Shown here: in pieces, positions 1 to 19,100 of the stretch
Position numbering within the stretch: position 1 is the stretch's first letter
Layout: the number at the start of each line of letters is the position of its first letter
DNA from: a virus
Lineage: Duplodnaviria > Caudoviricetes
Length of the DNA: 56,494 bases
IMG/VR virus record: IMGVR_UViG_3300005613_000078
Coordinates: 1 to 56,494 of that record
Reading direction: 5' to 3' (one strand)
Notes under the pieces: model-generated
What the model was told of the DNA's origin: nothing
Seen by the model: only the letters and a program-made list of their open reading frames with translations
Databases searched by the model: none
Translations under genes and position numbers: made by a program

Positions 1-216
1 GATTCACATTGTGCCGCATGGATTTAAACTGCTGAAGATTGTGTAATGTACGATGAGAATGATGAACCGACTTATCCTTGCGACAAACATCCTGAACTTG
101 CTGAAAGAATCTTCAACGATGTAGGAAACATCGACTACATTTACACTGTTATTCAAGAATGTGTTGATGATCATACAGAAGAGCAATATATGTTACTTCA
201 ACAAGAATTAGTCTGA
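1..216 (+). pseudogene. 5'-truncated small hypothetical ORF with an in-frame TAA at 25-27 (or a 56-aa ORF from ATG at 46)
   Basis: Frame 1 reads DSHCAAWI*TAEDCVMYDENDE...QQELV* with phage-like codon use on both sides of the stop. Its TGA (214-216) abuts repeat R1. Confidence 0.45.
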
Positions 217-251
217 ATTAAAGTTAGTAACCTCGAAAGTTCCCCTATAGT
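217..251 (+). repeat. 35-bp intergenic element R1, directly followed by ATG
   Basis: ATTAAAGTTAGTAACCTCGAAAGTTCCCCTATAGT|ATG. Confidence 0.97.
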
Positions 252-1130
252 ATGCCAAACACACACCTCGAACATCCCGAAGATACCATTTTAACAGGTG
301 ATTTATCTGTCTTCGATGATCTTTACGGCAATGCCTTTCATATTAGTTTGAAGATGGATGGTGCGCCTGCTGTTGTATGGGGAACGCACAATGATCGGTT
401 CTTTGTATGCACCAAATCTGCATTTAACAAGAAAAAGATTAAACTATGTTATACAGTTGATGATATTCATCAACACTTTGGTCATCAGGAAGATGTTGCT
501 GATCTTTTATATTTGATGCTTAAGTATCTTCCCCGTGTGGAAGGTGTGTATCAAGGTGACTTCCTAGGTTACGGTCGGAAACATATACTTAGCAACAACA
601 CGCTAACATATGTTTTCCCTGAAAAGATTGACCAAAAACTTGTTATCGCACCACATACAAAGTATTATGTTGATGGTGAATTGTGTGATGCTGTTCCACT
701 TCCACTAAGGGAATGTTTCGACAATACTCCTCACGTTCGTTTCGTAATGCCTGCGGTTGATCGTATCAATCCAAGACAAAATGCACCTAAGATTGATACA
801 TCTGTTGTGCAGTTCTTGACAGATAAGGAAGCATATCAGGCAAAGCAAAGTATCAATGCAGTTATCAAATCTGGTCAGGAACTTGATGATGCTACCCTAA
901 CAGATATTCTAGGTTGTCAACACCTTGCTAACCTTTATCAGTGGGTGATTGAAGTCAAGGAAGATCTAATTGATAGCATGATTGTTTACAGTGACTTCAT
1001 GACTTTTCTTCCTAATCATGAACAAACTGTCGGTGAAGGTTTTGTATACTGGACCGAACAAGGTGCGTTGAAGCTAGTGAACCGAACTGTATTCAGTTAT
1101 GCAAACTTTACTGAAGGTAGATTTGGTTGA
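252..1130 (+). CDS. RNA-ligase-like covalent nucleotidyltransferase-fold protein (NTHLEHxED family, DUF6267-like)
   Basis: 292 aa. Motif I SLKMDG, motif III-like YQGDF, motif IV EGFV and motif V-like LKLV occur in the order seen in the ATP-dependent ligase/capping enzyme superfamily. Confidence 0.6.
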   Translation: MPNTHLEHPEDTILTGDLSVFDDLYGNAFHISLKMDGAPAVVWGTHNDRFFVCTKSAFNKKKIKLCYTVDDIHQHFGHQEDVADLLYLMLKYLPRVEGVYQGDFLGYGRKHILSNNTLTYVFPEKIDQKLVIAPHTKYYVDGELCDAVPLPLRECFDNTPHVRFVMPAVDRINPRQNAPKIDTSVVQFLTDKEAYQAKQSINAVIKSGQELDDATLTDILGCQHLANLYQWVIEVKEDLIDSMIVYSDFMTFLPNHEQTVGEGFVYWTEQGALKLVNRTVFSYANFTEGRFG

Positions 1131-1165
1131 ATTAAAGTTAGTAACCTTGAAATGTCCATTATAGT
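1131..1165 (+). repeat. 35-bp element R2, followed by GTAAG leader
   Basis: ATTAAAGTTAGTAACCTTGAAATGTCCATTATAGT|GTAAGAAC; begins immediately after the upstream TGA. Confidence 0.97.
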
Positions 1166-1180
1166 GTAAGAACGAAACCT

Positions 1181-1432
1181 ATGAAACCATTTCCCTACAC
1201 TGAAGTCAACGCAATCGAGCGTGAAATGTGTGATCTTCGTGCTGAAGTCTCCAGTCTTCAGATTCAACTTGAAAACACACAACGTTGCCTTAATTCACTG
1301 CAACGTAAGCGTCAGGATCTAATCAACTTCTCCCGCGAAGGTAATCTTTTCGAGCAAATGTTTGGTGAAGAAGTATCAGTGCCAAGTATCTACACTGATA
1401 CTCCCATGGCAGAAGAAGTGTACGGAGGTTGA
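1181..1432 (+). CDS. small hypothetical protein, coiled-coil
   Basis: 83 aa ORF starting 15 nt after R2; heptad-like LRAEVSSLQIQLENTQRCLNSL. Confidence 0.8.
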   Translation: MKPFPYTEVNAIEREMCDLRAEVSSLQIQLENTQRCLNSLQRKRQDLINFSREGNLFEQMFGEEVSVPSIYTDTPMAEEVYGG

Positions 1433-1602
1433 TGATGATTACCAAAAAAGCACAAATGCTCAACATCATGAAAAAATGTGATGGTGGGTCTACATTAACA
1501 CGGGAAGAAAAGTTTGAAGTTTTCTGTCGTGTGTGTGATAATATGTTAAAAGAGGGAAGATTGTCCAAAGCAAATCATAAACGCTGGACAAATATCTGGT
1601 AA
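1432..1602 (+). CDS. small hypothetical protein (56 aa, not in ORF track)
   Basis: TGATG coupling to the upstream gene; MMITKKAQMLNIMKKC...KRWTNIW; the last base of its stop codon is the first base of R3. Confidence 0.75.
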   Translation: MMITKKAQMLNIMKKCDGGSTLTREEKFEVFCRVCDNMLKEGRLSKANHKRWTNIW

Positions 1603-1636
1603 TTAAAGTTAGTAACCTCGAAAGGTCTGCATTGGT
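1602..1636 (+). repeat. 35-bp element R3, directly followed by ATG
   Basis: ATTAAAGTTAGTAACCTCGAAAGGTCTGCATTGGT|ATG. Confidence 0.95.
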
Positions 1637-1840
1637 ATGGAAAGCACAATCGCCCGAAAGATGAACATTCTGGATCAAATCAAAGGTTACAAAGTTCAGG
1701 ATGATGATGGTTCGATCTATACCGTTGTTGATGTTAAGTTCTTCAATGGTATTGTTGACTTGATTGGGTTAGAAACAACTGATGATCGGGTTGTATATTG
1801 CCCCATCAATCGTTATATGGAAATGGCATCAATCGCCTAA
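1637..1840 (+). CDS. small hypothetical protein
   Basis: 67 aa ORF starting exactly after R3; alternative ATG at 1661. Confidence 0.8.
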   Translation: MESTIARKMNILDQIKGYKVQDDDGSIYTVVDVKFFNGIVDLIGLETTDDRVVYCPINRYMEMASIA

Positions 1841-1856
1841 ATTATTAAGGAAAACT

Positions 1857-2054
1857 ATGAACAATACCATGCGAGATTTATTCCAGGAAGCACTTCAATC
1901 ACTGCCAGATTTCATTTATGAAATGAACCCTAATTGGGAAATGGTTTATGATTATGTTTGCGAACAAATCAAAGAAGATGAACTTAATTCAGATCAGATT
2001 TCAAAGATGATTAAAGTTTATGATGATGCGATGGGTTATAGTGAAGCAGGTTAA
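1857..2054 (+). CDS. small acidic hypothetical protein (65 aa, MNNTMRDLF...)
   Basis: ATG at 1857 preceded by AAGGA; same frame as track ORF 1782..2054. Confidence 0.75.
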   Translation: MNNTMRDLFQEALQSLPDFIYEMNPNWEMVYDYVCEQIKEDELNSDQISKMIKVYDDAMGYSEAG

Positions 2055-2064
2055 TCCTTTAACA

Positions 2065-2099
2065 ATTAAAGTTAGTAACCTTGAAATGTCCCCTATAGT
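2065..2099 (+). repeat. 35-bp element R4, directly followed by ATG
   Basis: ATTAAAGTTAGTAACCTTGAAATGTCCCCTATAGT|ATG. Confidence 0.97.
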
Positions 2100-2336
2100 A
2101 TGAATAACACTAAATCCATTACTTTCCGTCAAGCTCTTAACATTCTGGAGGAGCAGTTTGATTCAACTTATCGTGGTATTTCTACGGTAAAAGAAATGAC
2201 AACTGATCTAGTTTCTGCTATTAGTTTTGAAGGTGAAGATCCCAATAAAATCTATCATCGTTTCGAGACTGAAGTTGGTCCGAATCGTATTGTTGAAGAT
2301 GATCAAATCATTGCCCTTGCACTTCATTACGTTTGA
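2100..2336 (+). CDS. small hypothetical protein
   Basis: 78 aa ORF starting exactly after R4. Confidence 0.8.
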   Translation: MNNTKSITFRQALNILEEQFDSTYRGISTVKEMTTDLVSAISFEGEDPNKIYHRFETEVGPNRIVEDDQIIALALHYV

Positions 2337-2344
2337 AAAAAACC

Positions 2345-2575
2345 ATGATTGTTTATCAAGCAGAAAACCAAGGTTGTGCCTATTCCATTGATAGTGAAGG
2401 CACCTTATTCTACACGCCAATGTATCAAGATGGAACTGTGAATCTTGAAGATTGGTGTGAAGTAGATCTAATGCAACTATTAGGTGAAGATGAGAATCTT
2501 CGTTTGGAAGTTGATGCAATCCACGAACAACTTATCAGTATCAGTAAACTAATGGGTGAGTATTTCAAGAAATGA
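2345..2575 (+). CDS. small acidic hypothetical protein
   Basis: ATG at 2345 (TTG at 2333 is an alternative); fills the gap between neighbouring genes. Confidence 0.75.
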   Translation: MIVYQAENQGCAYSIDSEGTLFYTPMYQDGTVNLEDWCEVDLMQLLGEDENLRLEVDAIHEQLISISKLMGEYFKK

Positions 2576-2778
2576 ATCAGCACAAAGCACTGCAACTTCT
2601 CGCGCAAGGTTTTAAGAATGATCTTGCCAAAAGTATCTACGAAGATGAAAAGTTCACTGAATTGATGATGGAATTGTCATTCAAGTTTGTGGAAGATAAC
2701 GTGCCAGTTGTCGAAGAAGATGTTCAATACGAACTGGCACTAATGTTAATGGAAACCCTGAATCTATCAACGTATTAA
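2572..2778 (+). CDS. small hypothetical protein
   Basis: 68 aa; ATGA overlap with the upstream gene; its TAA lies inside R5. Confidence 0.8.
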   Translation: MNQHKALQLLAQGFKNDLAKSIYEDEKFTELMMELSFKFVEDNVPVVEEDVQYELALMLMETLNLSTY

Positions 2779-2808
2779 AGTTAGTAACCTCCAAACGTCC
2801 CCTATAGT
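2774..2808 (+). repeat. 35-bp element R5, directly followed by ATG
   Basis: ATTAAAGTTAGTAACCTCCAAACGTCCCCTATAGT|ATG. Confidence 0.97.
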
Positions 2809-2994
2809 ATGAACAACACTTCAACCAAAATCGAAGAACCAAAGTTCCTCCTTTATGGGGAATGGATTCGCCCTAATGGTCATCAAATGTACGACATCTT
2901 GGGTTATATCAAACCCACAAGAGAGGAAGCAATCGCTACATGTAGGCGACTTAATCCTCACTTCCATATCACACACATTGAGGTCGAAAAATAA
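2809..2994 (+). CDS. small hypothetical protein
   Basis: 61 aa ORF filling the space between R5 and R6. Confidence 0.75.
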   Translation: MNNTSTKIEEPKFLLYGEWIRPNGHQMYDILGYIKPTREEAIATCRRLNPHFHITHIEVEK

Positions 2995-2998
2995 AGGT

Positions 2999-3033
2999 AT
3001 TAAAGTTAGTAACCTCCAAACGTCCCCTATAGT
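2999..3033 (+). repeat. 35-bp element R6 (identical to R5), directly followed by ATG
   Basis: ATTAAAGTTAGTAACCTCCAAACGTCCCCTATAGT|ATG. Confidence 0.97.
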
Positions 3034-3237
3034 ATGAACAACACTTCAATTATGGTAGATTACACTTTGGTCAAAGAACAACTCGGAACCGTTGTCACTG
3101 ACGGTTCAAACGAATATGTTGTTTATGATTTTAAGATTGGGTGTGCTGCTTATCAACTTTGGGACAAAAAAGAACAGGCATTTTATTACACTGATTACAA
3201 TGCCTTCAATACACTTTATCAGCAAATCTCTGGTTGA
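3034..3237 (+). CDS. small hypothetical protein
   Basis: 67 aa ORF between R6 and R7; alternative ATG at 3052. Confidence 0.8.
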   Translation: MNNTSIMVDYTLVKEQLGTVVTDGSNEYVVYDFKIGCAAYQLWDKKEQAFYYTDYNAFNTLYQQISG

Positions 3238-3271
3238 TTAAAGTTAGTAACCTCCAAACGTCCCTATTAAC
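3237..3271 (+). repeat. 35-bp element R7, followed by GTAAG leader
   Basis: ATTAAAGTTAGTAACCTCCAAACGTCCCTATTAAC|GTAAGCAC. Confidence 0.95.
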
Positions 3272-3293
3272 GTAAGCACTGATTCAAACCACA

Positions 3294-3641
3294 ATGCGTA
3301 AGATCGAAGCACAGATGATTGCTGCCATCAACAAGAATCAGAACTGGCAATCTGCTAATACTTCTGTTCACTTTGACGAAGAAACTAACACTTCTATTGT
3401 TCGTCTTCATGGTAACAAAATTGCAGAAATTGATGATACCAGCATGACAATCTTCGATGGTGGTTATCAATCAAAGACGACCAAATCACGCCTTAACGTT
3501 CTCTGTCAGGAGTTCTGTATTGCAGGCGAAGGAGTATTTCAAAAGAATTATAATTGGTTCGTTCGTCATTACGTTGGTGCCGTAAATGGTGTTGATAAGT
3601 TCATCACTAAGGAGTTCACTAATGGTTACGTTTTCGCCTGA
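3294..3641 (+). CDS. hypothetical phage protein (MRKIE...TTKSRLN type)
   Basis: 115 aa ORF after R7; motifs LHGNKIA and GGYQSKTTKSRLN resemble a recurrent phage hypothetical family. Confidence 0.85.
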   Translation: MRKIEAQMIAAINKNQNWQSANTSVHFDEETNTSIVRLHGNKIAEIDDTSMTIFDGGYQSKTTKSRLNVLCQEFCIAGEGVFQKNYNWFVRHYVGAVNGVDKFITKEFTNGYVFA

Positions 3642-3669
3642 TTCATTTGCTCGCTTGATTAACACTAAC

Positions 3670-3894
3670 ATGAAAAACAACACTAACACTTTCGTTCCCA
3701 ATCCCATGCATGAAATGTTAATGGCAAGAGAACAACTAATGGAGGACATTGATTCTATTATTGAAGGTTTTTACTTTGATAATCCAGTTCAAAACTGCTG
3801 CGGCGCTGACCGTCTCCAACTAACTGCTGCTGATAGTGATGAACTCATCCGCACACTATGTGATGCCGTCTGCAAAAACTTCCCCACTAACTAA
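3670..3894 (+). CDS. small hypothetical protein
   Basis: 3' part of track ORF 3586..3894; start uncertain (3670 or 3706). Confidence 0.7.
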   Translation: MKNNTNTFVPNPMHEMLMAREQLMEDIDSIIEGFYFDNPVQNCCGADRLQLTAADSDELIRTLCDAVCKNFPTN

Positions 3895-3904
3895 CACTCT
3901 TATT

Positions 3905-4075
3905 ATGAACAAAGATTCACTAATTGAAGCATATGTTAATCGGGTTATTGATGGTTTAGACCTTGATGATTGTCTTGCTATTCTTCATGATTATATGACC
4001 AAATCGTATGAAGATTATTCACTGGAAGAGATGAAAGAAGAGGTCAATGAGTATTACCCTGAATTGTTAGAATAG
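3905..4075 (+). CDS. small acidic hypothetical protein (56 aa, MNKDSLIEAY...YYPELLE)
   Basis: Non-overlapping ATG within track ORF 3836..4075. Confidence 0.75.
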   Translation: MNKDSLIEAYVNRVIDGLDLDDCLAILHDYMTKSYEDYSLEEMKEEVNEYYPELLE

Positions 4076-4288
4076 GGGTTGAAAATACTCCATAAATACC
4101 ACATTTTCATTGAAAACGATTAAAAAAGGTTTTTTTTAATGTATTTGTGTGTTTTGTTTGATATGTAACAAATCGTGTTAAATGCACTGGAAAGGTACTG
4201 TGAAGATGCTTACAATACGCTGTGAAGGTACTCTTTTGCAGTATTATTGTCCCTATAAAGGTGTCATCTTGTAGTGATATTAGACCGC

Positions 4289-4317
4289 AGTCTATCACAC
4301 CTTCCCGCATAAGTCAA
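4289..4317 (-). promoter_or_regulatory. sigma70-type promoter on the minus strand, with extended -10
   Basis: Minus strand reads TTGACT-17 nt-TAGACT with TG at -15/-14. Confidence 0.65.
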
Positions 4318-4358
4318 CACCGCCCCAGTATCAACATTGAAACCCACACATTTTTCAC

Positions 4359-4387
4359 TTGACTAACACTTACTTTTATAGTATATT
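4359..4387 (+). promoter_or_regulatory. sigma70-type promoter overlapping repeat R8
   Basis: TTGACT-17 nt-TATATT. Confidence 0.6.
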
Positions 4388-4416
4388 GTTAGTAACCTCC
4401 GAATGTCCCCTATAGC
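4382..4416 (+). repeat. 35-bp element R8 (5' end divergent), followed by GTAAG leader
   Basis: TATATTGTTAGTAACCTCCGAATGTCCCCTATAGC|GTAAGCAC. Confidence 0.92.
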
Positions 4417-4434
4417 GTAAGCACACAATCCCAC

Positions 4435-4698
4435 ATGACAGCATCACAAACCACCACCCGGACTCGTTACACTAACGACGAAGAATGGTTGCTGGCAGAT
4501 CTTATCTGTGACGGCAATACTCCTGCTGAAGTATACACTAAGTTCCGTGAGGTTTATGATACCCACAGCGAAGGATCTATCAACCTGCAGTATCGTCAGG
4601 CAGTTAATCTGTGGACCCATGGTAAACAGGGAATGTCACACAAAACTAACAGTTTCATGGAGAAACTAATTGCAATCGACCCTGATACTTTCGGTTGA
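4435..4698 (+). CDS. hypothetical protein, possible Myb/SANT-like helix-turn-helix
   Basis: 87 aa; RYTNDEEWLL...HSEGSINLQY resembles the WTxEEdxxL...RsxxsixxRy pattern. ORF is solid; domain call is tentative. Confidence 0.55.
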   Translation: MTASQTTTRTRYTNDEEWLLADLICDGNTPAEVYTKFREVYDTHSEGSINLQYRQAVNLWTHGKQGMSHKTNSFMEKLIAIDPDTFG

Positions 4699-4721
4699 TT
4701 TGTGTAAACTACAGCGGAGGT

Positions 4722-4756
4722 AATAAAGTTAGTTACCTCCAAATGTCCCCATTAAC
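4722..4756 (+). repeat. 35-bp element R9, followed by GTAAG leader
   Basis: AATAAAGTTAGTTACCTCCAAATGTCCCCATTAAC|GTAAGCAC. Confidence 0.92.
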
Positions 4757-4775
4757 GTAAGCACGAATCACGAAC

Positions 4776-4928
4776 ATGACTCAAACCGAATCATTCATTC
4801 AGGCACTCTACAATCTCATCGATCTGAAAATTATCGACCTGGATGAGTATCAGTGCCTGCTGGACAACTTCACTACCACGGAAGAATTGGATGCTTATCT
4901 AACAGCAAGGGAAGACATCACTATTTGA
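4776..4928 (+). CDS. small acidic hypothetical protein (50 aa, not in ORF track)
   Basis: MTQTESFIQALYNLIDLKIIDLDEYQCLLDNFTTTEELDAYLTAREDITI*, starting 19 nt after R9. Confidence 0.75.
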   Translation: MTQTESFIQALYNLIDLKIIDLDEYQCLLDNFTTTEELDAYLTAREDITI

Positions 4929-4953
4929 CATCGGGGGGAATATGTGGTAGACT
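4925..4953 (+). promoter_or_regulatory. sigma70-type promoter with extended -10
   Basis: TTGACA-17 nt-TAGACT with TG at -15/-14. Confidence 0.7.
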
Positions 4954-5135
4954 TACAGTATTGTGAATTCGACAGTGATTGGGCGTCTTATTTGTTAGCG
5001 TCCGGCGGGCGTAGCGTGTATAAGGTATCGGTATAATGTTTAATGTCCCCCCCCCCTACCTAAAAAAGCGGGTCCCTTCTAACCTACAAAAGTATATACC
5101 CGGTCGCTATATAATTCGTTGAATGAAATAAGTTT

Positions 5136-5357
5136 ATGATAAAAAATTCCCCAGAAAAAATTATGCCCCAAAAGGTTTTTCACATATACGCGAAGGATGA
5201 ATGTTTATATCCAAATCTAACTGAAGAACAATTTAATAATACTTGGACAACCCTTAATGGAATGGTTGGTCTCATGAAGACTGACTATGAAGTTGAGGAT
5301 TTATCTTATGAAGAATTAGAGAAACCCGAACTAGATACAGAAGAATCGTCGTATTGA
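5136..5357 (+). CDS. hypothetical protein
   Basis: 73 aa (alternative start 5163); acidic C-terminus. Confidence 0.75.
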   Translation: MIKNSPEKIMPQKVFHIYAKDECLYPNLTEEQFNNTWTTLNGMVGLMKTDYEVEDLSYEELEKPELDTEESSY

Positions 5358-5382
5358 CAGCGCATATATATCACGTTATAAT
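5354..5382 (+). promoter_or_regulatory. consensus sigma70 promoter
   Basis: Perfect TTGACA-17 nt-TATAAT, ending 21 nt before ATG 5404. Confidence 0.9.
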
Positions 5383-5403
5383 TGAGTTGAGTTTTAAAGA
5401 CTT

Positions 5404-6189
5404 ATGGCAAAAGGATTTACTGTGAAGGCAAAAACGCCCGTCAAAAGTGAAAAGAAAGAAGGTCCAGAATGGGACTATGCTGCAATCAAAGAAAGGATGC
5501 GCGGTAAGGCAATTGTATTCTGTCTTCCAGGGCGTGGATGTTCTTATGCATTCATGAAGAATTTTGTACAACTGTGTTTTGATCTAGTACAGAACCAGAT
5601 GAGTATTCAGATCTCACAGGACTACAGTTCAATGGTTAACTTTGCACGTTGTAAGTGTCTGGGGGCAAACGTACTTCGTGGACCGGATCAGCTTCCATGG
5701 GATGGTAAGTTGAAGTATGACTATCAGTTGTGGATTGATAGTGATATCATATTCAACACTGAAAAGTTCTGGCAGTTGTGTGATATGGCAATTGCTGAAG
5801 ATGGAACAGAGAAAGAAATTGTTGCTGGTTGGTATTCTACTGAAGATGGTAAGACCACTTCTGTTGCACACTGGTTGGAAGAAGATGACTTCCGTAACAA
5901 TGGTGGTGTGATGAACCATGAAATGGTTGATGGTATCAGCAAGCGTAAGAAACCATTTACTGTTGACTACACTGGTTTTGGATGGGTGATGATTCAGAAT
6001 GGTGTGTTTGAAGATCCTAAGATGAAGTATCCTTGGTTTGCACCGAAGATGCAGGTCTTTGAATCTGGTGCAGTACAAGACATGTGTGGTGAAGACGTTT
6101 CATTCTGTCTTGATGCGATTGAAGCAGGATATGAAATTTGGTGTGACCCACGCATTCGTGTTGGTCATGAAAAGATGCGGGTGATCTGA
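5404..6189 (+). CDS. GT-A fold glycosyltransferase-like protein
   Basis: 261 aa; DxD motif LWIDSDI plus TGFGW, GEDVSFC and WCDPRIRVGH, typical of GT2-like enzymes. Confidence 0.75.
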   Translation: MAKGFTVKAKTPVKSEKKEGPEWDYAAIKERMRGKAIVFCLPGRGCSYAFMKNFVQLCFDLVQNQMSIQISQDYSSMVNFARCKCLGANVLRGPDQLPWDGKLKYDYQLWIDSDIIFNTEKFWQLCDMAIAEDGTEKEIVAGWYSTEDGKTTSVAHWLEEDDFRNNGGVMNHEMVDGISKRKKPFTVDYTGFGWVMIQNGVFEDPKMKYPWFAPKMQVFESGAVQDMCGEDVSFCLDAIEAGYEIWCDPRIRVGHEKMRVI

Positions 6190-6219
6190 TAAGATTACGG
6201 AAGTGATCTGATGTACACT

Positions 6220-6244
6220 AAAGGGGGTTGACACCCTCTTTTTT
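6220..6244 (+). terminator. rho-independent terminator overlapping a -35 box
   Basis: AAAGGGGG-TTGACA-CCCTCTT followed by a T-run. Confidence 0.7.
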
Positions 6245-6256
6245 ATTGGATATACT
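6228..6256 (+). promoter_or_regulatory. sigma70-type promoter
   Basis: TTGACA-17 nt-TATACT upstream of ATG 6280. Confidence 0.85.
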
Positions 6257-6279
6257 TACAAAGTAATTAATAAGGTCAC

Positions 6280-6426
6280 ATGGCAAAGGTAAGCAAGTCA
6301 CTAATGGGCAATCAGTTTATTGAAGCAACTCCCAAAAAAACCCGACAGGGTCAAGGGAAGCATACAAAGTATGCGTCATCCAGTAGAAACAATGCTAAGA
6401 AACCATATCGTGGCCAAGGACGTTGA
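6280..6426 (+). CDS. small basic hypothetical protein (48 aa, not in ORF track)
   Basis: MAKVSKSLMG...PKKTRQGQGKHTKY...KPYRGQGR; TAAGG Shine-Dalgarno-like sequence and own promoter. Confidence 0.8.
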   Translation: MAKVSKSLMGNQFIEATPKKTRQGQGKHTKYASSSRNNAKKPYRGQGR

Positions 6427-6797
6427 AGTTTAATACTTTATTGTACACCTACCTATCACCTAGTACAGTGTGTGATGGGGTGGGTGTTTTTTCTTTAGTT
6501 GATATACCTGCTGATACTGTTATCTTTAGTCCAAAATCCCGCGAAAAAATACGTTTCTCTGAAGTATCTGAAGAAGTGGGCAAAAAAATGCGAGAACTAA
6601 CGTATTGTGATGAAGATGGTTTTTGGGTTGATGATGATTTAGATCGTTTAGGTCCGCAGTATTATATCAATCATTCATTAAATCCAAATGTGTCCTATAA
6701 TAAGGATACTGGTTGTCTATATGCCACAAGGGATATTGATGCTAACGAAGAACTACTAGACTATTATTTTCCTGAAGAACGAGAATGGCCTACCTGA
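6423..6797 (+). CDS. SET-domain protein (putative lysine methyltransferase)
   Basis: GVGVF, YINHSLNPN and ATRDIDANEELLDYY match the SET signatures GxG, NHSxxPN and ELxxDY-like; TTG start overlaps the upstream TGA. Confidence 0.85.
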   Translation: MKFNTLLYTYLSPSTVCDGVGVFSLVDIPADTVIFSPKSREKIRFSEVSEEVGKKMRELTYCDEDGFWVDDDLDRLGPQYYINHSLNPNVSYNKDTGCLYATRDIDANEELLDYYFPEEREWPT

Positions 6798-7447
6798 ATC
6801 ATAGTTTACCTGATTGGTCTTGTTACATCCGTAATGAATTCCTTTTTAATCATAAGAAGGGTCATGGAGAAGTAACACGATGTGATGTGCATAGCGTTGC
6901 TAGTATAGAAAAAAGAACACCCCTGTTTGAAGCATTCCTAGAGAATGGTGTGAACTGGACTAGAAGACCACTACATGCGTTCTGCTGGCGTCCTGACGCG
7001 GAAATAGAACCATTAGAGGACACAATGTACTGGGACTGCTTTTCGCCTTATGTGGACGTACAGAGACGGCATAGATTGGCAGGATTGAAAGCAGAGTTGA
7101 TTCGTCCTGATGGTAAAAAGGCAGTTGGTAATTATATGTTTACCTTAGACTGGTCATGGGAGAATAAGGGAATGCCTGACTTGAACTATTCAGAAACACC
7201 TGAACATAAGTGTGCCCACTTGTTCAAGATGGAGAACGGCAACTATTATGCTTATCCAAACAATCGTATTATCTGGTATGATGATGCATGGACTTTTAAT
7301 CGTATTAAGAAAAATCCTGGATATGAAATTGATCTAACTGTTTATTCCGTTGAAGGGAGACGGACAATTGAAACCGGTGATGATTACATGTATGAAGTCA
7401 CACACCTAGATAATGATGATTCTATCGAAGTGATTAACTATGACTGA
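6785..7447 (+). CDS. conserved phage hypothetical protein
   Basis: 220 aa, aromatic-rich, with WDCFS, EHKCAH and YPNNRIIW motifs; overlaps neighbours in operon style. Confidence 0.85.
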   Translation: MAYLNHSLPDWSCYIRNEFLFNHKKGHGEVTRCDVHSVASIEKRTPLFEAFLENGVNWTRRPLHAFCWRPDAEIEPLEDTMYWDCFSPYVDVQRRHRLAGLKAELIRPDGKKAVGNYMFTLDWSWENKGMPDLNYSETPEHKCAHLFKMENGNYYAYPNNRIIWYDDAWTFNRIKKNPGYEIDLTVYSVEGRRTIETGDDYMYEVTHLDNDDSIEVINYD

Positions 7448-7601
7448 TGATAACTTATTGAGGGAGATTGCTAACGACAATCAAACTCCTAAAAATAAGA
7501 AAAAAGTAAATAGCGATGGTTTATTTGAAACCACTGATTGCTCTGACCCTGATCATCAGTGTACTTGCGGACCACAGCAGGTAATAATTACCGAAGATTA
7601 G
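7440..7601 (+). CDS. small hypothetical protein (53 aa, not in ORF track)
   Basis: MTDDNLLREIANDNQTPK...CSDPDHQCTC...; fills the gap before gp25. Confidence 0.6.
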   Translation: MTDDNLLREIANDNQTPKNKKKVNSDGLFETTDCSDPDHQCTCGPQQVIITED

Positions 7602-7605
7602 TGTT

Positions 7606-7612
7606 CTAAATA
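7606..7612 (+). promoter_or_regulatory. T4-type late promoter
   Basis: CTAAATA in the intergenic gap before gp25. Confidence 0.6.
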
Positions 7613-7633
7613 AGGTAGAATTCTTGTATTAGT

Positions 7634-8035
7634 TTGCCAGTCCAAAGGAAATCTAAAGGTTTCAAAGATATTAGCGCATCATTCAAGATCAATCCAGTCA
7701 ATCAAGACTTGATTGGTCTTGTAAATTTTAATGCGATTGCTCGTTCGGTTCGTAATTTGATTCTTACACAACCTGGCGAAAGACCTTTTAATCCTTCCCT
7801 TGGTTCTGGCGTTAATGCGTTATTGTTTAATAACTTGGATCGTTTAACTGCCAGTAGTATTAAAAGCGAAATTGAAAATACAATTGAAAATTTTGAACCC
7901 AGAGTGGAATTGAATGAAGTTACAGTTGAAGCTAACGCTTCAAAGCATAAGTTTGATGTAAAGATTCAATATTATATTATTGGTATTCCGGCAGACTTAC
8001 AAGAAGTATCACTTGCATTAGTTCCTACTAGGTAA
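7634..8035 (+). CDS. gp25: baseplate wedge subunit gp25
   Basis: AIARSVRNLILTQPGERPFNPSLGS and IENFEPRV gp25/GPW motifs; upstream of gp6. Confidence 0.92.
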   Translation: MPVQRKSKGFKDISASFKINPVNQDLIGLVNFNAIARSVRNLILTQPGERPFNPSLGSGVNALLFNNLDRLTASSIKSEIENTIENFEPRVELNEVTVEANASKHKFDVKIQYYIIGIPADLQEVSLALVPTR

Positions 8036-10175: not shown

Positions 10176-13100
10176 ATGGCAATAGATAGAGTAAAAATTC
10201 AGGACATTCTTGCTTCTCAGGTTCCCGAGTATGTCAAGGATGATTTTCCTCTTCTGGTAGAATTTTTAGAGCAATATTATATCTCACAAGAAACAAAGGG
10301 AGGAACATTTGATCTGATTCAAAATCTAGATCAATATGTAAAAGTTGATCAATTATATAATCTAAAAACAGATACGATTCTAAATTCAGACATTAGTTCT
10401 ATAGACACCACGATTGTAACTGATGTTAATAGTAACTTTACTGAGGGATTTGCAAAAGAAAATGGTTTAATCAAAATTGATAATGAAATTATTGCATATG
10501 GATATAAGACAGAAACAACCTTTGAGGACTGTGTAAGAGGTTTCAGCGGCATTTCAAGTTATGTTGGGACTAATTCATCAGACGAGTTAGTATTTGATGA
10601 AACAATAGCATCCTCCCATAAAAAAGGTTCTTCAATTCAAAATTTAAACGTACTTTTTCTTCAAGAGTTTTTTGCAAAACTTAAGCGTCAAGTGCTGCCA
10701 GGTTTTCAAGATAGAAAACTTTTTGATAATTTAGATCAAAGAAACTTTATTTTTGGTGCTAGTTCTTTTTATCAATCAAAAGGAACTGATGCCTCTGTTG
10801 AAATTCTTTTTAGAGCACTTTATGGAAAAGAAGCAGAAGTAATCAGACCCAGTGAATTTTTAATTAGGCCATCCGATGCTGATTATAGAATAACTAAAGA
10901 CTTTGTTGTAAAATCATATATTGGTGACCCTTTAGATTTAAAAGGACGCACCCTCTATCAACCAATCATTAGTGCAAATGGTTCTATAGTGGGTATCAAT
11001 ACTATTACAGGTGAAATTGATAATAATACAATCATTAGAGGGTCTGTTTGTGACATTGAAAGATTGCCTTTTGATGAGGGGCAATATTATCAAGTTTCAA
11101 TTGATATTGGATATGATAGGGATACTGACGTAGAAGGAAGTATCCGTGGACTTTATCAATCAAATCCCAAAACACAAATCGTTAATACCGTAGGTGCAGG
11201 TTCTAGTATTATAGATGTTGATTCAACTATTGGATTTCCAGATAAGGGATCTTTATTTACTTCTGATATTGATAATAATGTTATCAAAATTAATTATGGT
11301 TCAAAAACAATAAATCAATTTAATGAGATATCAACGTCCGATATAACAGGTGAAATAGCAGAAGGTTCAAACTTAAATTATAATAATACTTGTTTTGCTT
11401 TTAAAGGTGATGATAAGATAGAAGTAATAATGACTTCTACTTTAACTAACCTTTTATTAAAAGAACAAACTAAGAATTTAAATGTTGGTGATACTATTAA
11501 TGTAAAGTCTATTGGTCTTCCTGCCACTTATAAAAAAGCAACAAACTGGTTTTATAATATAAAAACTAAATTTCAGTCAAAAGAAATAACTGAAATAGAC
11601 AGAACAGAGTCAATTTATAGATTTCAATTATTCAATAGACACTTTTTTAAAATTGGATATGCGATAAGAGTATCAGGTTCTGATGGTGTGATTAGAACTG
11701 GTAATGTAACTTCTGTAAACTCAGATTTTTCATTTACTGTAAAACTGAGCACTTCTTTAAGTGATCTTCAACTATCACTGAATTATACTGTCACTAATTT
11801 ATTATCGAAAAGTGATTCCTCAGATTACACTCAATTAAGAAATTATACAACTAATGTTCAGAATATCTACACTAAGTTCAACAAAGATATTTTAGTAGCA
11901 TCTAACTCTATACCAACATATCTTCAGACACCCCTCAATCCTTACGATAAAAAAATTACTTTTTCGGGATCTGCTTCAAGTGATGGTACAATCATCATTA
12001 CCCCAACCACAGAACATGGATTCTTTACAGGTGATTCTGTATTTTATAAAGGAAGTATCACAACTACAACCACAACGACTCCAGACGGTAATCAAATCAT
12101 CACCGAAGTAACTAATAAGTTCACTAATATGGATGAACTTGTTTATTTTGTTAAAAGGATAGATTCGACTAGTATAAAACTTGCAAGAAGCAAATCAGAT
12201 CTCTTTGATAATAAATTTATAGTTCCATCTGGAACTGCTATTAATAATCAATTAATTTACTTTGATTTCTATCAAAAGAGCGTAAACCAGCAAACATTAT
12301 ACAGAGAATTTGTAGAACCCAACAACAAATCTGGAACTTTTAATACGACACCAGGATATGTTGGTATGCTTATCAATGGTGTTGAAATTCTGAACTTTAA
12401 ATCACCAAAAAGTGTATATTATGGTAATATCAATGAAGTTGAAATTGTTGATCAAGGATATGGATATGATGTAATCAATCCACCTCTTTTGAATATCACT
12501 GACATACTCGGTGTAGGTGCTACAGGCACATGCTCTGTTGATGGTTCATTAGAAAGAATTGATCTTAAAGATACTGGTTATGATTATGTTGATACCCCCA
12601 TTGTAAGAATAACTGGAGGTTTTCCAGAGGAAGATGCCTCTGCGAAAATAAACTTATCGTCTATTAACCATAGTGTAGTTTTTAATGCTGGTGCGGCAAG
12701 TACAAATGTAAAACTTAATCCAAATAATACGATTGGATTCGGCACCTTTCATAAATTTAGAGATTTTGAAAGAGTAGTATATAACACTTATGGTTCAACA
12801 TCTGTCACAGGAATATCGACCAACTCATTATACTATGTCAAGGTAGTTGATGCCTTCACTATTAATCTTCATAAAAGTGAATCTGATGCCATATCAGGAA
12901 TTAATACAATTAGTCTTACTGCATATGGAAATGACACCCATTCAATAGATGCACATGAAAGAAAGAAAATCGTTACGAATATTATTGTAACAAATCCAGG
13001 AAAAGGATATAAGAACAATGAAAGAAATATCAATCCAATAGGTGTTGTTACTTCACTGAACACTATTAATATTCTGAATCATAATTACAATGAAAAAGAT

Positions 13101-16100
13101 ATTATTAGATACACACCGGGCACTAGTCCGATAAGTGGTATTAATTCAAATACTGATTATTTTGTAAAAGTTGATGATAAAGACTCAATAAGATTATTTG
13201 AAATAGGTGTAGGGGGAACTGATAGAAACTATTACTATGATAATGATATTGAAGTTAGTATTGCTTCTACAGGTAATGGTTCATTGAATTATGAAAGGAT
13301 CAATGTTTCGGTTGAAGGAACAATTGGAGTCAATTCTCTTACTGATCAAGATTTTACTTGTAAAGTTATTCCAGTATTCAGAGGTTCAATTACCTCAACA
13401 AACATAACAAGCAAAGGTGTTGGATATGGTGCATCAACAATTTTAAATTTTGATAGACAACCCGATATTACATTTGATAGTGGAAGTAATGCTCAACTTT
13501 TCCCTGTCGTATCTAATGGAAAAATCATTGATGTAATAGTTCAAAATTCTGGAACAGGATACAACTCCCCACCAGATTTAGAAATCGTTGGTGTTGGAAG
13601 TTTTGCTAAATTAACACCCATTATTCATAATGGATCAATTGTAACGGTTAATATCATATCTGGTGGTATAGGATACAATCAAGGCGATATACAATTAAAA
13701 GTCAAACCATCTGGTCTTGATGCTACTGCAGTGGCAAAAATTCAAGAATGGAATGTAGATATTTTTACCAATGATTTTGAAAACATTGATAGTGATGATG
13801 GGTTTTTAGATGATAATATTTCTTCCACCAATCTTCAATATGGACACGTTTATGCTCCAAGAAAACTTAGAGAATCCATATATGCGATTGATTTTCAAGG
13901 AAATACACTTTACGGGGAACCTGACCTAAAAGTAGAAAATGGCATAGAAATTGATTCATTGCAGCACTCACCAATAATCGGTTGGGCATATGATGGTAAT
14001 CCAATTTATGGTCCGTATGGTTATTCTAATGGAACTGGAGGTGCAATTAAACAAATGCGCCCTGGTTACGAATTAGTAACAAATCAATCACAAAGACCAC
14101 CATTTTCTAGTTTTAAAGAAGGTTTCTTTGTTGAAGATTATGTTTTTAAAGGAACAGGCGATCTTGATGAAAATAATGGAAGAATTTGCGTAACACCAGA
14201 TTTCCCAGATGGTGTTTATGCTTACTTTGCTACTTTCAATCTTTCTGTCGATACAAGTGGAACTTTTGACAAGTATAAAAGACCTCAATTTCCATATTTG
14301 ATTGGTCCAACATTTAAATCTGAACCAAATCCTTTTAACTTTAAAAAAACCTCCAATCAAACTGAATATGATATAGAAAAAAATGATTGGTTAAGAAACA
14401 CATATTTTTATTATATTAACAATCAATATGCAGAATATGATTATATCTTCAATTCAGATAAGATAAAGGCACAATATTTAAAAATTACTGGTGCCTCTTC
14501 CGGTGTGATTAATACCGTTGGTATTGTGACTGGTGGTACACAATATCGTGTTAATGACAGAGTATTCTTTGACAATAAAGGAACAGGCGGAATAAATGCT
14601 AGAGCGTCTGTATCTAGAGTTGATGGTAAAAAAGTCAACACGGTAAGTATAGCGACTACCACAGTAAACAATTTTGAATTTGTTCCGTTTGGTTCTAGAT
14701 CAAGATTTATTGGAATTTCTTCAACACCACATAAGTTTAACAACGGTGAATTTATCACTATTGATGGTTTATCTCAATATTATAGCAATTTAGACGGAAC
14801 TTATCGTATTGGTGTAAGCACAAGCAATTTTGTGTTGACTGAAGCAGTAGGGGCAGCATCAACCACAGGAATCAATACTTTCATTTCTGTTTCAGGTAAT
14901 CTTCAATACCCCAGATTAGTTGTTAATGATATCCTAAAAATAGGAAATGAAAAAGTAAAAGTTCTTAACATAGAACCAAATAGAATTCGTGTGTCTAGAA
15001 AGCAAGAGGACACTGTATCATCAGCACACACATCTACAACACCCATCACCTCTGATCCTAACAAATTAACTGTTGAGGTAGGATCTGCTAAAACTACAAA
15101 AATATTAACTTTTAACAGAGAACTTTATTTTATTCCATCTGAGTCTGTTGGTATTGGAACTTCTATTGGTGTTGGTATTGGAAACACTCTTTCAATAACA
15201 AATCCAGGCGCTGGTGTTTCTGAAATTTTTGTTGGACCAAGACAGATTTATTTCCCTGGACATGGATTACGTCTTAATGATAAGTTAAGATATAACTTGA
15301 ATGGTGGTTCATCAATCAACTACTGGAACGGAATTGCTGGGGTGGCAAACACAAACCTAACTGGCATTACAACACTTTATGCTGTTCCATTTAATGAAAC
15401 TTTTATTGGTGTAAGTTCAAATCTAGTTGGACTTGGCACTACAGGAAAATATATTGGTATTAATACGAACACTGGTTTACTTTACTTTACTGGTATTGGA
15501 ACTGGAGACAATCATAGCTTTAAAACGGACTTGACAAATGTCATAACTGCTAATGTATCGAGAAATACCGTAACTGTTGCTACAGATGAAACACATGGTC
15601 TTACTTATCTTGATAATATTAATTTTGATCTTAAACCAAAAAGAGAAATCACTATTGATGTTAGATATGACGATTTTAATAGAAGAATTATTTTTAATCC
15701 AAAAAATTTCACTGCAGGGGATATCAATCTAAGTCAAAATACTATATCATTTTCAGATCATAACTTTAGAACTGGTGATAGAGTTATTCATACTTCATCA
15801 TCTCCCTCTGGAGGATTAGATAATGAAGGAATGTATTTTGTTTATCTTTATAAGAAAAATGAAATCAAACTCGTTAATAATAAATCTGATTTAAATCTCA
15901 TTGAACCAACATTTGTTAATATTACTTCTGCTTCTAATGGAACCCTATCAAGAATTAATCCATTCATTGAAGTTAGTAGAAAGAATACTTTGAAATTTGA
16001 TTTATCTGATCAATCGCTCTCTTTTATTTCAAACGGAATTAGATATTCTGCTTTTGACATGAAAGTCTTTAGTGATATAGAATTTAATAATAGATTTTTA

Positions 16101-19100
16101 ACATCAGGGAAAACTAATTCTTTTGAAGTCGCATCCTCTGGTAAAGTTGGCATTACGTCAACAGCAAATCTTACAATCAGTGCTACGGAAAATCTTCCCT
16201 CAATTTTGTGGTACAGATTTGAAACCACTAATAAGTCAATTATCCCCTCTGTAAAAAATGAATTAATTATTGATAAAGATGTTAATGCTTATAATCAAAT
16301 AAATGTCATAAGGACAGAAATAGATGGACCAAGAACCGTCACAGGTATTGGAACCACTACTTTTACATTTATTGTTAAGAAATCACCTGATGTTTTATCT
16401 TATGATTCAACTAATTCGGAACCTTTTTATTCTACAAATTCAAAATCAGCATATGGACCAATCAACGATGTAAGAATTATTGATCCTGGTTTTGGTTATA
16501 GAACTATTCCATCAATTTCTTCTATCAGAAGTGGTTTTGGAACAGGTGCTTTAGTTGAAGTTGATGGAGACATAGGAAAACTTTTTAATGTACAATTTAT
16601 TTCAAACAATATAGGATTTGATTATCCTAATGACTCTACATTAGATGTAGTGGCAGGAATTCCAGAAATTATTAAATTAGATCCGCTTTCTTCTTTCCAA
16701 AGTATTGGAATTACTTCTAGTGGCATAAATTATCTCAATTCTCCTGACTTAGTTGTTATAGATGGACTTTCTGGAAAAACAGTTGATGTAGAACTTGAAT
16801 ATGAACTGGGTGATACTGAAGTTACCATTCTTAAAAATACTTCTTCTCTTTTCTATGTGCCACCAACATTTATCCCTGTTAATAACTCAAATGGATTTTC
16901 AATCTCTTCGCTGACTTATAATAACACTAGCAAGGTGGTTAGACTTTTCCTTTCTCATCAATTTGCATCTAACTCGAATTATCCGTTTGAAATTGACAAA
17001 CCAATTCTAGTTGAAAATGTTAGTATTGGTATTGGTTCTACGGGTTCAGGATATAACTCAAAAGACTATTCTTACACATTATTCCCTGTAACTGGTGTTA
17101 ATACAAATGCTGGCGGTAGTGGTGCCTGGGTTGAATATGATTTAAGTGAGCAAGTAGGTGATTCTGGATTTCCTGGTAATTTTAGCACCGATTCTATTGG
17201 TAAAGTCATTCCAAAGACTCACTTTCCAACATTTAACGCACAACTTCGTAAAAATATATTTGTTGATGGTGAAAAATTAGTAAGTGAAAATTTCACAGGA
17301 AGAGTTCAGAATTGGAATCCAAACAATGAGACTTTGAAGGCAACAATTAATGGTGTTGCATCACCTAATGATACGGTTCGTGGATTTACCTCTGGAGCGG
17401 TAGGCGTAATTCAATCCATAGATATTTTTGATTCTCGTATTGAGGTTGGTGCTGGAGCAACCATATATGATGGATGGCAAAGAAATACTGGATTCCTGAA
17501 TGATAATCTTCAAAGGATCCCAAACAATGAGTATTATCAAGAATTATCGTATTCAATTTCCTCTGAAATTGATTTAGATACATGGAATGATCCTATAAGC
17601 ACCCATACACACACTGCTGGATTCAGAAAATTCTCTGATCTTCAAATTTATAGTGGTGCTAGCACTGAAAATTCTGCGATTGTTGATACAAATAATTCTA
17701 ACGTAGTTACAATTGTTGATATTGTCAGCAATGGTGATCTAAATTGTCACACAGACTTTGACGAAGCCACTGAAAGAGGTAAATTTATTGATAATGTTTA
17801 TATTTCTGATGAAATTATTTTTAAGAATAGAGTTGTAACCGATTTCCTTCAATCAATTGGAAACAGAGTTCTTGAAATTGATGACTTTTCAAATCAGTTT
17901 AATAGTAATGCAAGAGCAACTCCTTTCTCTATTGTAGCTTCTTACGAAGCAAATTATAATTATAATAAAATTTTCACTTATGTGAAAGATAGAACATTCA
18001 CTGACGAAAGACAGTTCGCTATTGTTTCTATTCTCCAGGATGATCAAATTGGATACATGAGTCAGTATGCAAGCATTGAAACATATCCTTATCTTGGTTA
18101 TTTTGATTATGCCTCCACAGCAGAAGGTTGGAACTTACTGTTCTATCCTGTTAAGTTTGAATCCAATATTTACGATGTGACCACATCGGCAATCAATATC
18201 CTTGCTGGTGTAGCTGATACTTCAATTAGAGCATTTGGTGATGTTTCTTACATTGTTGGTTCAACTGTCGATATTCCAGCAAGCACAACAACTTCTATCG
18301 TTTCATTTGGAACCACATATAGAGCAGCAAAACTTATCAACCTGTTCGTAGGAACTGATGATAAGATGTATGGTGCTGAATTAAATATCGTACACGATGG
18401 AACTGATTGTTATCAAATTGAAATGAATGCCATTGATGAAAATCAAGGATTATATGGTGCTGGATTTGGAACGTTTGATTCTAGAATCGTTGGTAGTAAT
18501 GTTGTCGTTGACTTCACGCCAGATGCTTCAGTATCTGTAGCACTTACTTGTTCTACTGCTTCAATTCTTGTTTCAGATAACAATACAACTGCTGGTAATG
18601 AATTTTTAGATGTTACAAGAGTCGGATCTTCTTATAGTTCTATAGCAGCATCGGGTTCTCCAACAGCAAATGTTGTTGCTTCTTATGAAAGTCCTTCAGA
18701 ATCTGCATATTACTTTGTAACGATTGAAAATACCACAGATAATGAGTATGAAATTTTAGAACTTGGTTCTATTAATTCAGATACCAATGAAGCATATGTT
18801 GAGTTTGCTAACGTAAGAACCGGTGGTAATATCGGAACAATTGGCGTTCAAACTGGAACTGACAGTATTGATGTTGTCTTCACACCAATAGCAAATAAAG
18901 CAGTTGAGGTTAGAACATACTTCACTGAAATGAATATCTTTGACTCAAATGAAAGATCTGGAGTCATAGACATTGATAATGTTCAAGTTACCGCAGATCA
19001 CCGTGATTATCAAGGAACATTACTTGATGTTAAGACACAATTTGAACTAAAACACGATGGTGACAATATCTTCAGAAGAGTATTTGAAGGTAACAATTCT

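Follow-up and report, generated by a model that had tools for sequence, protein, structure and literature searches.

IMG/VR virus record IMGVR_UViG_3300005613_000078 is a 56.5-kb fragment of an uncultured virus, with an estimated completeness of 26%; its 56,494 nucleotides (nt) are referred to here as the window. Nine 43-base elements, all on the + strand and spanning positions 217 to 4764, head blocks of small genes in this DNA, and in five of them one fixed base of the element, position 36, is the A of an ATG. What kind of signal builds a start codon into a repeat, and where would RNA begin if that signal is a promoter? The reading that we favor, and to which we would give an even chance of being correct, is that the element is a phage-specific promoter that would start RNA at position 36, yielding messages that are leaderless or carry short leaders without a Shine-Dalgarno (SD) sequence, and that it may also act as a seam at which gene blocks are exchanged.

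The element in the window and in its relatives

Over parts of 3.3-7.3 kb, the window DNA is 77-80% identical to that of the T4-like Synechococcus myoviruses S-B43, S-B05, S-SCSM1 and ACG-2014f. Positions 1-7600 form a block of small open reading frames (ORFs) on one strand, within which the nine elements, numbered R1 to R9, lie as follows.

R1, 217..259, + strand: the ATG at position 36 (252) opens a 292-amino-acid DUF6267 gene; the stop of the upstream ORF is at 214-216.
R2, 1131..1173, + strand: position 36 is G (1166), with a 15-nt leader to the ATG at 1181.
R3, 1602..1644, + strand: ATG at position 36 (1637); the 3' part is the most diverged.
R4, 2065..2107, + strand: ATG at position 36 (2100).
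R5, 2774..2816, + strand: ATG at position 36 (2809); a single-gene cassette whose 61-amino-acid ORF ends 5 nt before R6.
R6, 2999..3041, + strand: ATG at position 36 (3034); the ORF stop TGA at 3235-3237 overlaps position 1 of R7.
R7, 3237..3279, + strand: position 36 is G (3272), with a 22-nt leader to the ATG at 3294 of a Kyano_Gp96-family gene.
R8, 4382..4424, + strand: position 36 is G (4417), with an 18-nt leader to the ATG at 4435.
R9, 4722..4764, + strand: position 36 is G (4757), with a 19-nt leader to the ATG at 4776.

A degenerate 21-nt pattern matches the 56.5-kb window nine times, against 0.08 matches expected (the largest number in any shuffle was 1), and a scan of the whole window gave no match on the - strand and none outside 217-4775. 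An initial annotation of this DNA had placed nine elements of fixed geometry here, with a purine at position 36 that opens either ATG (R1 and R3 to R6) or GTAAG(C/A)AC (R2 and R7 to R9). Both descriptions hold for all nine copies, and the geometry generalizes to 246 copies. The register proposed with them, GTCCCC at -12 to -7 and TATAGT at -6 to -1 relative to position 36, is that of the consensus, each word being present in only five of the nine copies: GTCCCC at positions 24-29 in R4, R5, R6, R8 and R9, and TATAGT at positions 30-35 in R1, R2, R4, R5 and R6. TAAAGT at positions 3-8 and TAACCT at positions 12-17 each occur in eight of the nine. R5 and R6 are 97% identical over 59 nt (2766-2824 versus 2991-3049), a stretch that includes the first five codons (MNNTS) of otherwise unrelated ORFs. 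Because many unrelated ORFs with an ATG at position 36 begin MN(N/T)T, their first codons appear to be constrained by the element.

Two pattern scans of viral contigs recovered 47 and 77 stretches; the number of distinct copies collected was 246, 392 or 461, according to the pattern used for detection. The family comprises 461 distinct copies in contigs of uncultured cyanomyoviruses, plus those of S-B05, S-B43 and SynMITS9220M01, and its members are always oriented with the downstream genes. Fifteen records of cultured cyanomyoviruses were scanned. The complete genome of S-B05 carries 14 copies, 12 of them within 31.6-40.4 kb; S-B43 carries 7; and SynMITS9220M01, in which the core is shifted by one base, carries 6 at no more than 3 mismatches and about 10 by a looser scan. 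The same search found no copy in Syn9, S-PM2, P-SSM2, ACG-2014f, P-TIM40, S-SM2, S-SSM7 or Syn19, and a single 3-mismatch match each in P-HM2, S-SCSM1 and S-RSM4, which is the level of the reversed-pattern control. No exact match to the 23-nt core turned up among 185,579 prokaryote genomes.

Four parts can be distinguished in the element: an A/T-rich hexamer (positions 1-8), an 'address' box (7-16), a core (14-35) reading ACCTnnAAAnGTCCnCTATAGT, and a conserved stretch reading RTAAnCAC or ATGAAC. The core, which is the downstream half, is common to two families of upstream boxes, GTTAGT[A/T]ACC and N-T-N-N-CTCACC, that are mixed in only one listed locus (L065). The box is private to a lineage, being GTTAGTWACC in the window and NTNNCTCACC in the S-B05 lineage. 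Among 246 copies, at positions outside the search pattern, C29 is conserved in 91%, T32 in 91%, A33 in 85%, T35 in 94%, T37 in 83% and A39 in 76%; position 38 is A in 68% and G in 27%, and position 36 is a purine in 243 copies. Conservation ends at position 43, running from about -35 to +8 relative to position 36.

Folding of the nine elements is no better than that of shuffled sequences (z of +1.9 to -0.6, except for R9 at -2.1), and in four of the nine the fold is matched or bettered by 196-200 of 200 shuffles. Between the two box families several positions differ, without compensating change. Searches against Rfam gave no match in window positions 1-8000 or in seven related loci, and no terminator-like site was found at any of the nine elements. 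Because the folds are no better than those of shuffles and the box families show no compensation, we favor recognition of the element as duplex DNA. R9 alone forms an 8-bp hairpin (4717-4744; GGAGGTAA...TTACCTCC), in which an upstream SD-like word pairs with the ACCTCC of the element.

Start codons, leaders and the putative RNA start

An ATG occupies position 36 in 64 of the 246 copies, and 63 of these 64 begin a frame of 30 codons or more, or one that continues past the end of the locus; the larger set has 105 such copies among 461. GTG occurs at this place only twice, opening 3 and 6 codons, and is never a start, and G38 is almost confined to copies with A36 (64 versus 2). The window gene at 252-1130 matches Pfam DUF6267 (5e-65), and the first position of the profile falls on residue 3. 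An orthologue of this gene lies behind the element in 32 loci, starting at position 36 in 12 and after a leader of 14-20 nt in 20, with the common N-terminus M-x-x-x-H-[ILVM]-[ED]-H-[PL], which is the same pattern that was used to collect the orthologues. In view of the ORF statistics, the restriction to ATG, the DUF6267 profile and the N-termini of the orthologues, the ATG at position 36 is, as judged by these comparisons, a start codon in use. Among the 105 copies, 28 are single-gene cassettes that run from the ATG at 36 through to the next element. The DUF6267 protein is conserved in many cyanomyoviruses, including Syn9, and a K-M-D-G motif was seen in it by eye, which we take to be reminiscent of motif I of ligase nucleotidyl-transferases.

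Among the 246 copies, 63 have their ATG directly at position 36; it lies 1-13 nt further on in 5, 14-22 nt in 144 and farther still in 29, and 5 have none. Because conservation ends at position 43, the motif itself does not account for the emptiness of 44-49, and something within the element sets a minimum distance to the ATG. Where position 36 does not begin an ATG, the leaders (n=322) have a median length of 17 nt, are A/C-rich with 7.8% G beyond position 43, and carry an SD-like word in 16 cases. For the window, A/C-rich leaders of 15-22 nt without a strong SD had been described; they measure 15, 22, 18 and 19 nt.

These lengths can be set beside the distance from the -10 hexamer to the ATG in other promoter classes of these phages. 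That gap measures 21-27 nt in the repeat cassettes of ACG-2014f (n=18), 21-25 nt at five of six Syn9 sites, a median of 23-26 nt at late promoters, and 21 and 23 nt at the two usable sigma70 promoters of the window. Between TATAGT and the ATG of the elements there are only 14-22 nt, or 0. A start 7 nt after TATAGT would therefore make leaders about 6 nt shorter than those of every other promoter class; since the other classes keep 21-27 nt, with medians of 22-26, the usual leader of about 16-18 nt would be regained only if RNA starts at position 36.

A structured RNA of about 70 nt lies directly behind the element in 15 relatives. In single-sequence folds, pairing begins at position 40 or 41 in 12 of the 15. 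RNAalifold gave no pairs from untrimmed sequences; the trimmed set gave a consensus of 11 pairs, 9 of which show compensatory changes. The RNA is 92.7% paired, versus 70.6% in shuffles (0 of 500 reach this value), and at most 46% when slid. Because they belong to a paired helix, bases 40-48 would be part of the RNA, which argues against a start at 42-44. This is an undescribed structured RNA that is expressed behind some copies of the element; it is absent from the window and has no Rfam match in the loci searched. Examples are found at L010:1181-1251:+, L056:6566-6636:+ (S-B05), L026:1565-1640:- and L055:566-640:+. An outer helix beginning at 40/41 encloses an inner helix rich in compensatory changes, with pyrimidine-rich internal loops (ACUUCUC and UUGYUUCWC), and a U/C-rich linker and an ORF follow.

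Position 36 is thus the best candidate for the RNA 5' end that sequence comparison offers, and the initial annotation's proposal of this base as the transcription start gains indirect backing from the ATG-only rule, the avoidance of 1-13 nt gaps, the leader lengths and the helix from position 40, with a start near 42 persisting as a rival. The elements would then be transcription start signals private to one group of T4-like cyanomyoviruses. RNA would begin at purine 36: where this purine is the A of an ATG the message would be leaderless, and otherwise it would have an A/C-rich leader of 14-22 nt without an SD sequence. RTAAnCAC or ATGAAC would be the first-transcribed stretch, and the elements would double as seams for block exchange between phages.

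The reader of the element and alternative explanations

The private box, together with a core that is absent from cellular genomes, suggests a factor supplied by the phage; either such a factor or a modified host polymerase probably reads the element. A phage-encoded specificity factor had been proposed for the window, and the lineage-private box agrees with it; no candidate emerged among sigma-like genes or the carrier-specific ORFs scanned. For the T7-type polymerase family PF00940 there was no match at E<=1 in S-B05, S-B43, SynMITS9220M01 or the window; the search was rerun on the complete genomes of S-B05 and SynMITS9220M01 with Syn5 as positive control (4.2e-77), while S-B43 and the window were run without a control. 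With PF04542, each carrier shows one gp55-like sigma fragment, as does Syn9. SynMITS9220M01 has one further weak match (E 0.014), and an extra sigma70-like gene belongs to ACG-2014f, a non-carrier. A phylogenetic profile of S-B05 ORFs that are present in SynMITS9220M01 and absent from Syn9, S-PM2 and ACG-2014f retained 45 ORFs.

Several of these results and others weigh against a phage-specific start at position 36. No reader was found through PF00940, PF04542 or the 10 of 45 carrier-specific ORFs scanned in Pfam: there is no extra sigma-like gene in S-B05 or S-B43, and the 10 ORFs yielded only a SET domain and PstS, neither of them DNA-binding-like. TANNNT at 30-35 or 32-37, taken with C41 and A42, matches the classical sigma70 layout for RNA beginning at 42, and since the cassettes of ACG-2014f and Syn9 share CTATA-T as an extended -10, descent of the core from a sigma70-type box is plausible. 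The helix argument derives mostly from position 48 onward, as the pairs at 40-41 are 93% paired and hardly covary, and read-through RNA would also contain those pairs. All of the translation arguments for the ATG at 36 fit read-through transcripts in a terminator-free array equally well. RNA evidence came from three metatranscriptome runs, as assembled contigs of relatives (best share 0.09) set against window positions 1-8000; these contigs hop between repeats and some cross elements, and may represent read-through or DNA.

The element as a whole appears to be a real, widespread and phage-only start signal of unusual fixed geometry, for which the leaderless, non-sigma70 reading is, on sequence grounds, best supported. 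More tentatively, these phages might possess an initiation system of their own, in which a protein that is brought in by the virion or made very early, or else a polymerase whose type its sequence does not reveal, would read about 35 bp of duplex DNA including the address box and start RNA on the A of the ATG.

A sigma70-type start near position 42 is a serious rival, if in our judgment an unlikely one. Host polymerase would use TATAGT (30-35) or TAGTRT (32-37) as its -10 and start at A42 to N44; a phage activator on box 7-16, near -30, would replace -35 recognition as MotA does at T4 middle promoters, and the ATG at 36 would be translated from transcripts started upstream. TANNNT is indeed found at 32-37 in 80% of 458 copies and at 30-35 in 72%, a figure inflated by the search pattern (in the window, eight and five of nine, respectively), and C41 (62%) and A42 (76%; n=246) follow seven bases after TATAGT. 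In the cassettes of sister phages the related CTATAMT serves as an extended -10, and the lineage-private box sits where an excerpt of PMC4122927 places the Mot box. The -35 place, however, read directly, is GTTAGT (positions 7-12) or TTAGTA (8-13), with 2-3 of 6 matches to TTGACA, and a canonical-promoter scan of 1-8000 reported none of the nine elements, only a separate promoter at the edge of R8. Leaders would measure only 8-16 nt, against about 15-20 nt in other promoter classes of these phages. In 105 of 461 copies the promoter would lack the start codon of its own gene, and the elements of the 28 single-gene cassettes could not serve that gene at all, because the ATG is at 36. The helix that begins at 40-41 in 12 of 15 relatives would reach upstream of the proposed start, and the purine at 36 and the conserved 'spacer' at 17-29 would be left unexplained. 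Furthermore, marine T4-like cyanophages lack motA and asiA according to an excerpt of PMC5780444; these genes were not searched for in this analysis. The earlier view that the element is no host sigma70 promoter finds indirect support in the missing -35 and in a core that none of 185,579 prokaryote genomes carries, and is qualified by the frequent TANNNT.

It is also conceivable, and in our estimate quite unlikely, that position 36 marks a processed end. Long early RNAs from host-type promoters would be cut between U35 and R36 by an endoribonuclease (RNase E or a phage enzyme), leaving monophosphate ends. A same-strand ORF without terminator precedes nearly every element, RNA contigs cross elements, and the unstructured, G-poor context would be accessible. 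The U two bases after the putative cut (T37) is conserved, and a conserved U at this place is a feature of RNase E sites. Endonuclease recognition sites are short, and a 35-nt unstructured RNA site with a lineage-private box is unlike those known. Moreover, the discarded 5' side is conserved as strongly as the cut site, and the 43-nt conservation pattern resembles that of a protein-DNA site.

A promoter at the 5' edge is very unlikely. Its -10 would be the hexamer at 3-8 (TAAAGT) or at 1-6, RNA would start at about 13-15, and positions 15-43 would be a conserved untranslated leader, perhaps the target of a translational regulator. Marine picocyanobacterial promoters often consist of a -10 only, TANNNT occurs at 3-8 in 62% of 458 copies, NAGAAT- or NATAAT-like hexamers stand there in S-B05 and SynMITS9220M01 copies, and in 3 of the 458 positions 1-6 coincide exactly with the -10 of a complete sigma70 promoter. 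Against these points, the hexamer drifts in register and sequence between lineages and 38% of copies lack TANNNT at 3-8; an unstructured conserved leader has no evident function, and neither the avoided gap of 1-13 nt nor the ATG-only rule at 36 is explained. Of the two other -10 boxes that the initial annotation had offered as alternatives, TAAAGT falters on this 62% and TAACCT is lost in the second box family.

The elements also coincide with borders of gene blocks. In 417 of 436 copies the element edge is where an upstream ORF of 40 or more codons ends; the upstream stops are most frequent at positions 3, 0 and -1, and 97 times the stop is the TAA that the element itself carries at 3-5. Stops in all three frames fall within positions 1-39 in 276 of 461 copies. 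When relatives were aligned to window positions 1-5400, 100 of 238 homology-block ends lay no more than 15 nt from an element, versus 12% of positions (3.4-fold), and in six loci the alignment of the DUF6267 cassette begins exactly at R1 and ends exactly at R2. Because many near-identical copies stand at gene-block borders, the elements probably act as exchange seams as well. It is highly improbable that the main role of the elements is to mark borders of recombination or of cassettes, as integron- or PeSL-like seams that contain stops and have no expression role of their own. The enrichment of block ends, the three-frame stops, and the near-identity of R5 and R6 with their common ORF start would suit such a role, yet an expression signal is what the strict gene-matched orientation, the purine at 36, the restriction to ATG, the avoided distances and the conservation further downstream all indicate. 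The elements have no recombinase linked to them, and homologous recombination could make incidental use of any repeat of about 40 bp.

Other signals in the window and comparison with known systems

The window holds three classes of signal, namely the nine elements, four TTGACA/TATAAT-type promoters and [CA]TAAATA late promoters. From 7.6 kb on, the genes are large and structural, with the late-promoter word before each (7606 onward); two giant ORFs of 4065 and 2536 amino acids occupy 10176-22373 and 25043-32653 in this region. A scan of positions 1-8000 located the host-type promoters as follows.

4359, 4925, 5354 and 6228: four near-consensus host-type promoters (TTGACA, 17 nt, TATAAT-like).
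4359..4387, + strand: the first of these, TTGACT, 17 nt, TATATT, joined to the 5' edge of R8; it serves as the contrast class to the elements.

Positions 1-6 of R8 double as the -10 hexamer of this canonical sigma70-type promoter. The two longest gene-free stretches of the early region, 4076-4381 and 4929-5135, have host-type promoters at 3' ends (4359, 4925) and also carry runs of G or C and of A/T. At 6220-6256, a 9-bp G+C-rich hairpin and T run overlap a promoter (TTGACA, 17 nt, TATACT), a PeSL-like composite with the -35 inside the hairpin loop; a small basic ORF (6280-6426) lies downstream. A 124-amino-acid ORF at 6423-6797 has a homologue in S-B05 (59% identity) that matches the Pfam SET domain (3e-13), an unusual protein for the early/middle region of a cyanophage.

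Promoters of the T7/SP6 type have a long contiguous conserved block that ends in CTATAG-like bases before the start, extend over about 23 bp from -17 to +6 with a purine at +1, and are confined to phages. The elements resemble them in the CTATAG-like bases that close the conserved block just before the putative start, in conservation that continues for a few bases beyond it, and in being phage-only. With position 36 taken as +1, a purine stands there in 243 of 246 copies, and the conserved stretch, about -35 to +8, is longer than the T7 layout. They differ in reaching about 30 bp upstream, in the lack of a PF00940 gene in carriers, and in a best start base that lies two bases after the G aligning with T7 +1. 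Membership in the T7/SP6 family, whose start region the initial annotation had likened to that of the elements, is rejected, as the carriers show no such polymerase and S-B05 and S-B43 no extra sigma-like gene. T4-type late promoters, read with gp55, have an A/T-rich box of the TAAATA type about 6 nt ahead of the start; the late word [CA]TAAATA is absent from the nine elements. By eye, which is a weak test, the elements were also judged not to be sigma54 (-24/-12) promoters, ECF sigma promoters (AAC...GTC at too short a spacing), NtcA sites (no GTA-N8-TAC), Pho boxes of the cyanobacterial kind (a single partial TAACCT without a tandem) or T7 primase sites.

ACG-2014f (18 copies, L163-L164, at about 30-50 kb) and Syn9 (at 148792 and elsewhere) have repeat cassettes of their own. 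These comprise a GTGGCACA-like box, about 27 nt, and then a TG-extended -10 (TGCTATACT or TGCTATAAT), and in Syn9 one of them precedes the DUF6267 orthologue. They occupy the same niche before small ORFs as the elements and share the CTATA-T core. In contrast to their TG, their 21-27 nt to the ATG and their purine-rich, SD-like leaders, the elements have CnC, leaders poor in G and an ATG at a distance of 0 or 14-22 nt. A k-mer search for an equivalent repeat (14-mers, at least 5 copies) found none in Syn9 or S-PM2, an apparent repeat in Syn9 being a coding repeat.

A study by Doron et al. 2016 (ISME J 10:1437) reportedly assigned control of early genes to a novel, non-host-like element and that of middle genes to host-like promoters, and reportedly found elements of this sort to be common in T4-like cyanophages. 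No description of that motif was found in papers citing the study. Syn9 and P-TIM40, which we take to be the phages studied, have no copy of the window element, which would therefore be at least another sequence family.

The PeSL/PmSL cassettes of T4-type phages are the subject of Arbiol 2010 (PMC2839356) and Comeau 2014 (PMC4122927). As described in the excerpt of PMC4122927, a PeSL consists of a stem-loop with a near-consensus sigma70 early promoter, or with a Mot box and a -10. Like the elements, these cassettes are lineage-specific regulatory repeats before the small ORFs of T4-like hyperplastic regions, at points of block exchange (PMC4122927, excerpt), and the elements likewise occur only in the small-ORF region 217-4775, at block borders. 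Unlike them, the elements have no stem-loop, with no terminator-like site and folds no better than shuffles in eight of nine, and no usable -35; their 'spacer' is conserved and a start codon is built in at a fixed base. If RNA were to start near 43, the elements would share with the T4 middle promoters of the same excerpt a phage-specific box near -30 replacing the -35, plus a TANNNT -10; they differ in lacking the TGCTT Mot box, in the conserved spacer, and in a start-codon geometry that favors 36. The intergenic repeats of halovirus HF2, promoters by reporter assay (PMC8707807, excerpt), are likewise repeated intergenic viral elements, with an archaeal host and promoter type and no sequence relation.

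T4-like cyanophages are among the most abundant ocean viruses, and the timing of their early genes is only partly known, because they lack the T4 middle-mode machinery. With more than 450 copies, strict geometry and three cultured carriers, the question of where RNA starts is directly testable, and the private address box is a possible handle for finding the reader. The same signals mark places where accessory gene blocks are swapped. Should these phages possess an initiation system of their own, much of their early proteome would be made in a cyanobacterial host from leaderless or SD-less messages whose translation depends on the 5' end.

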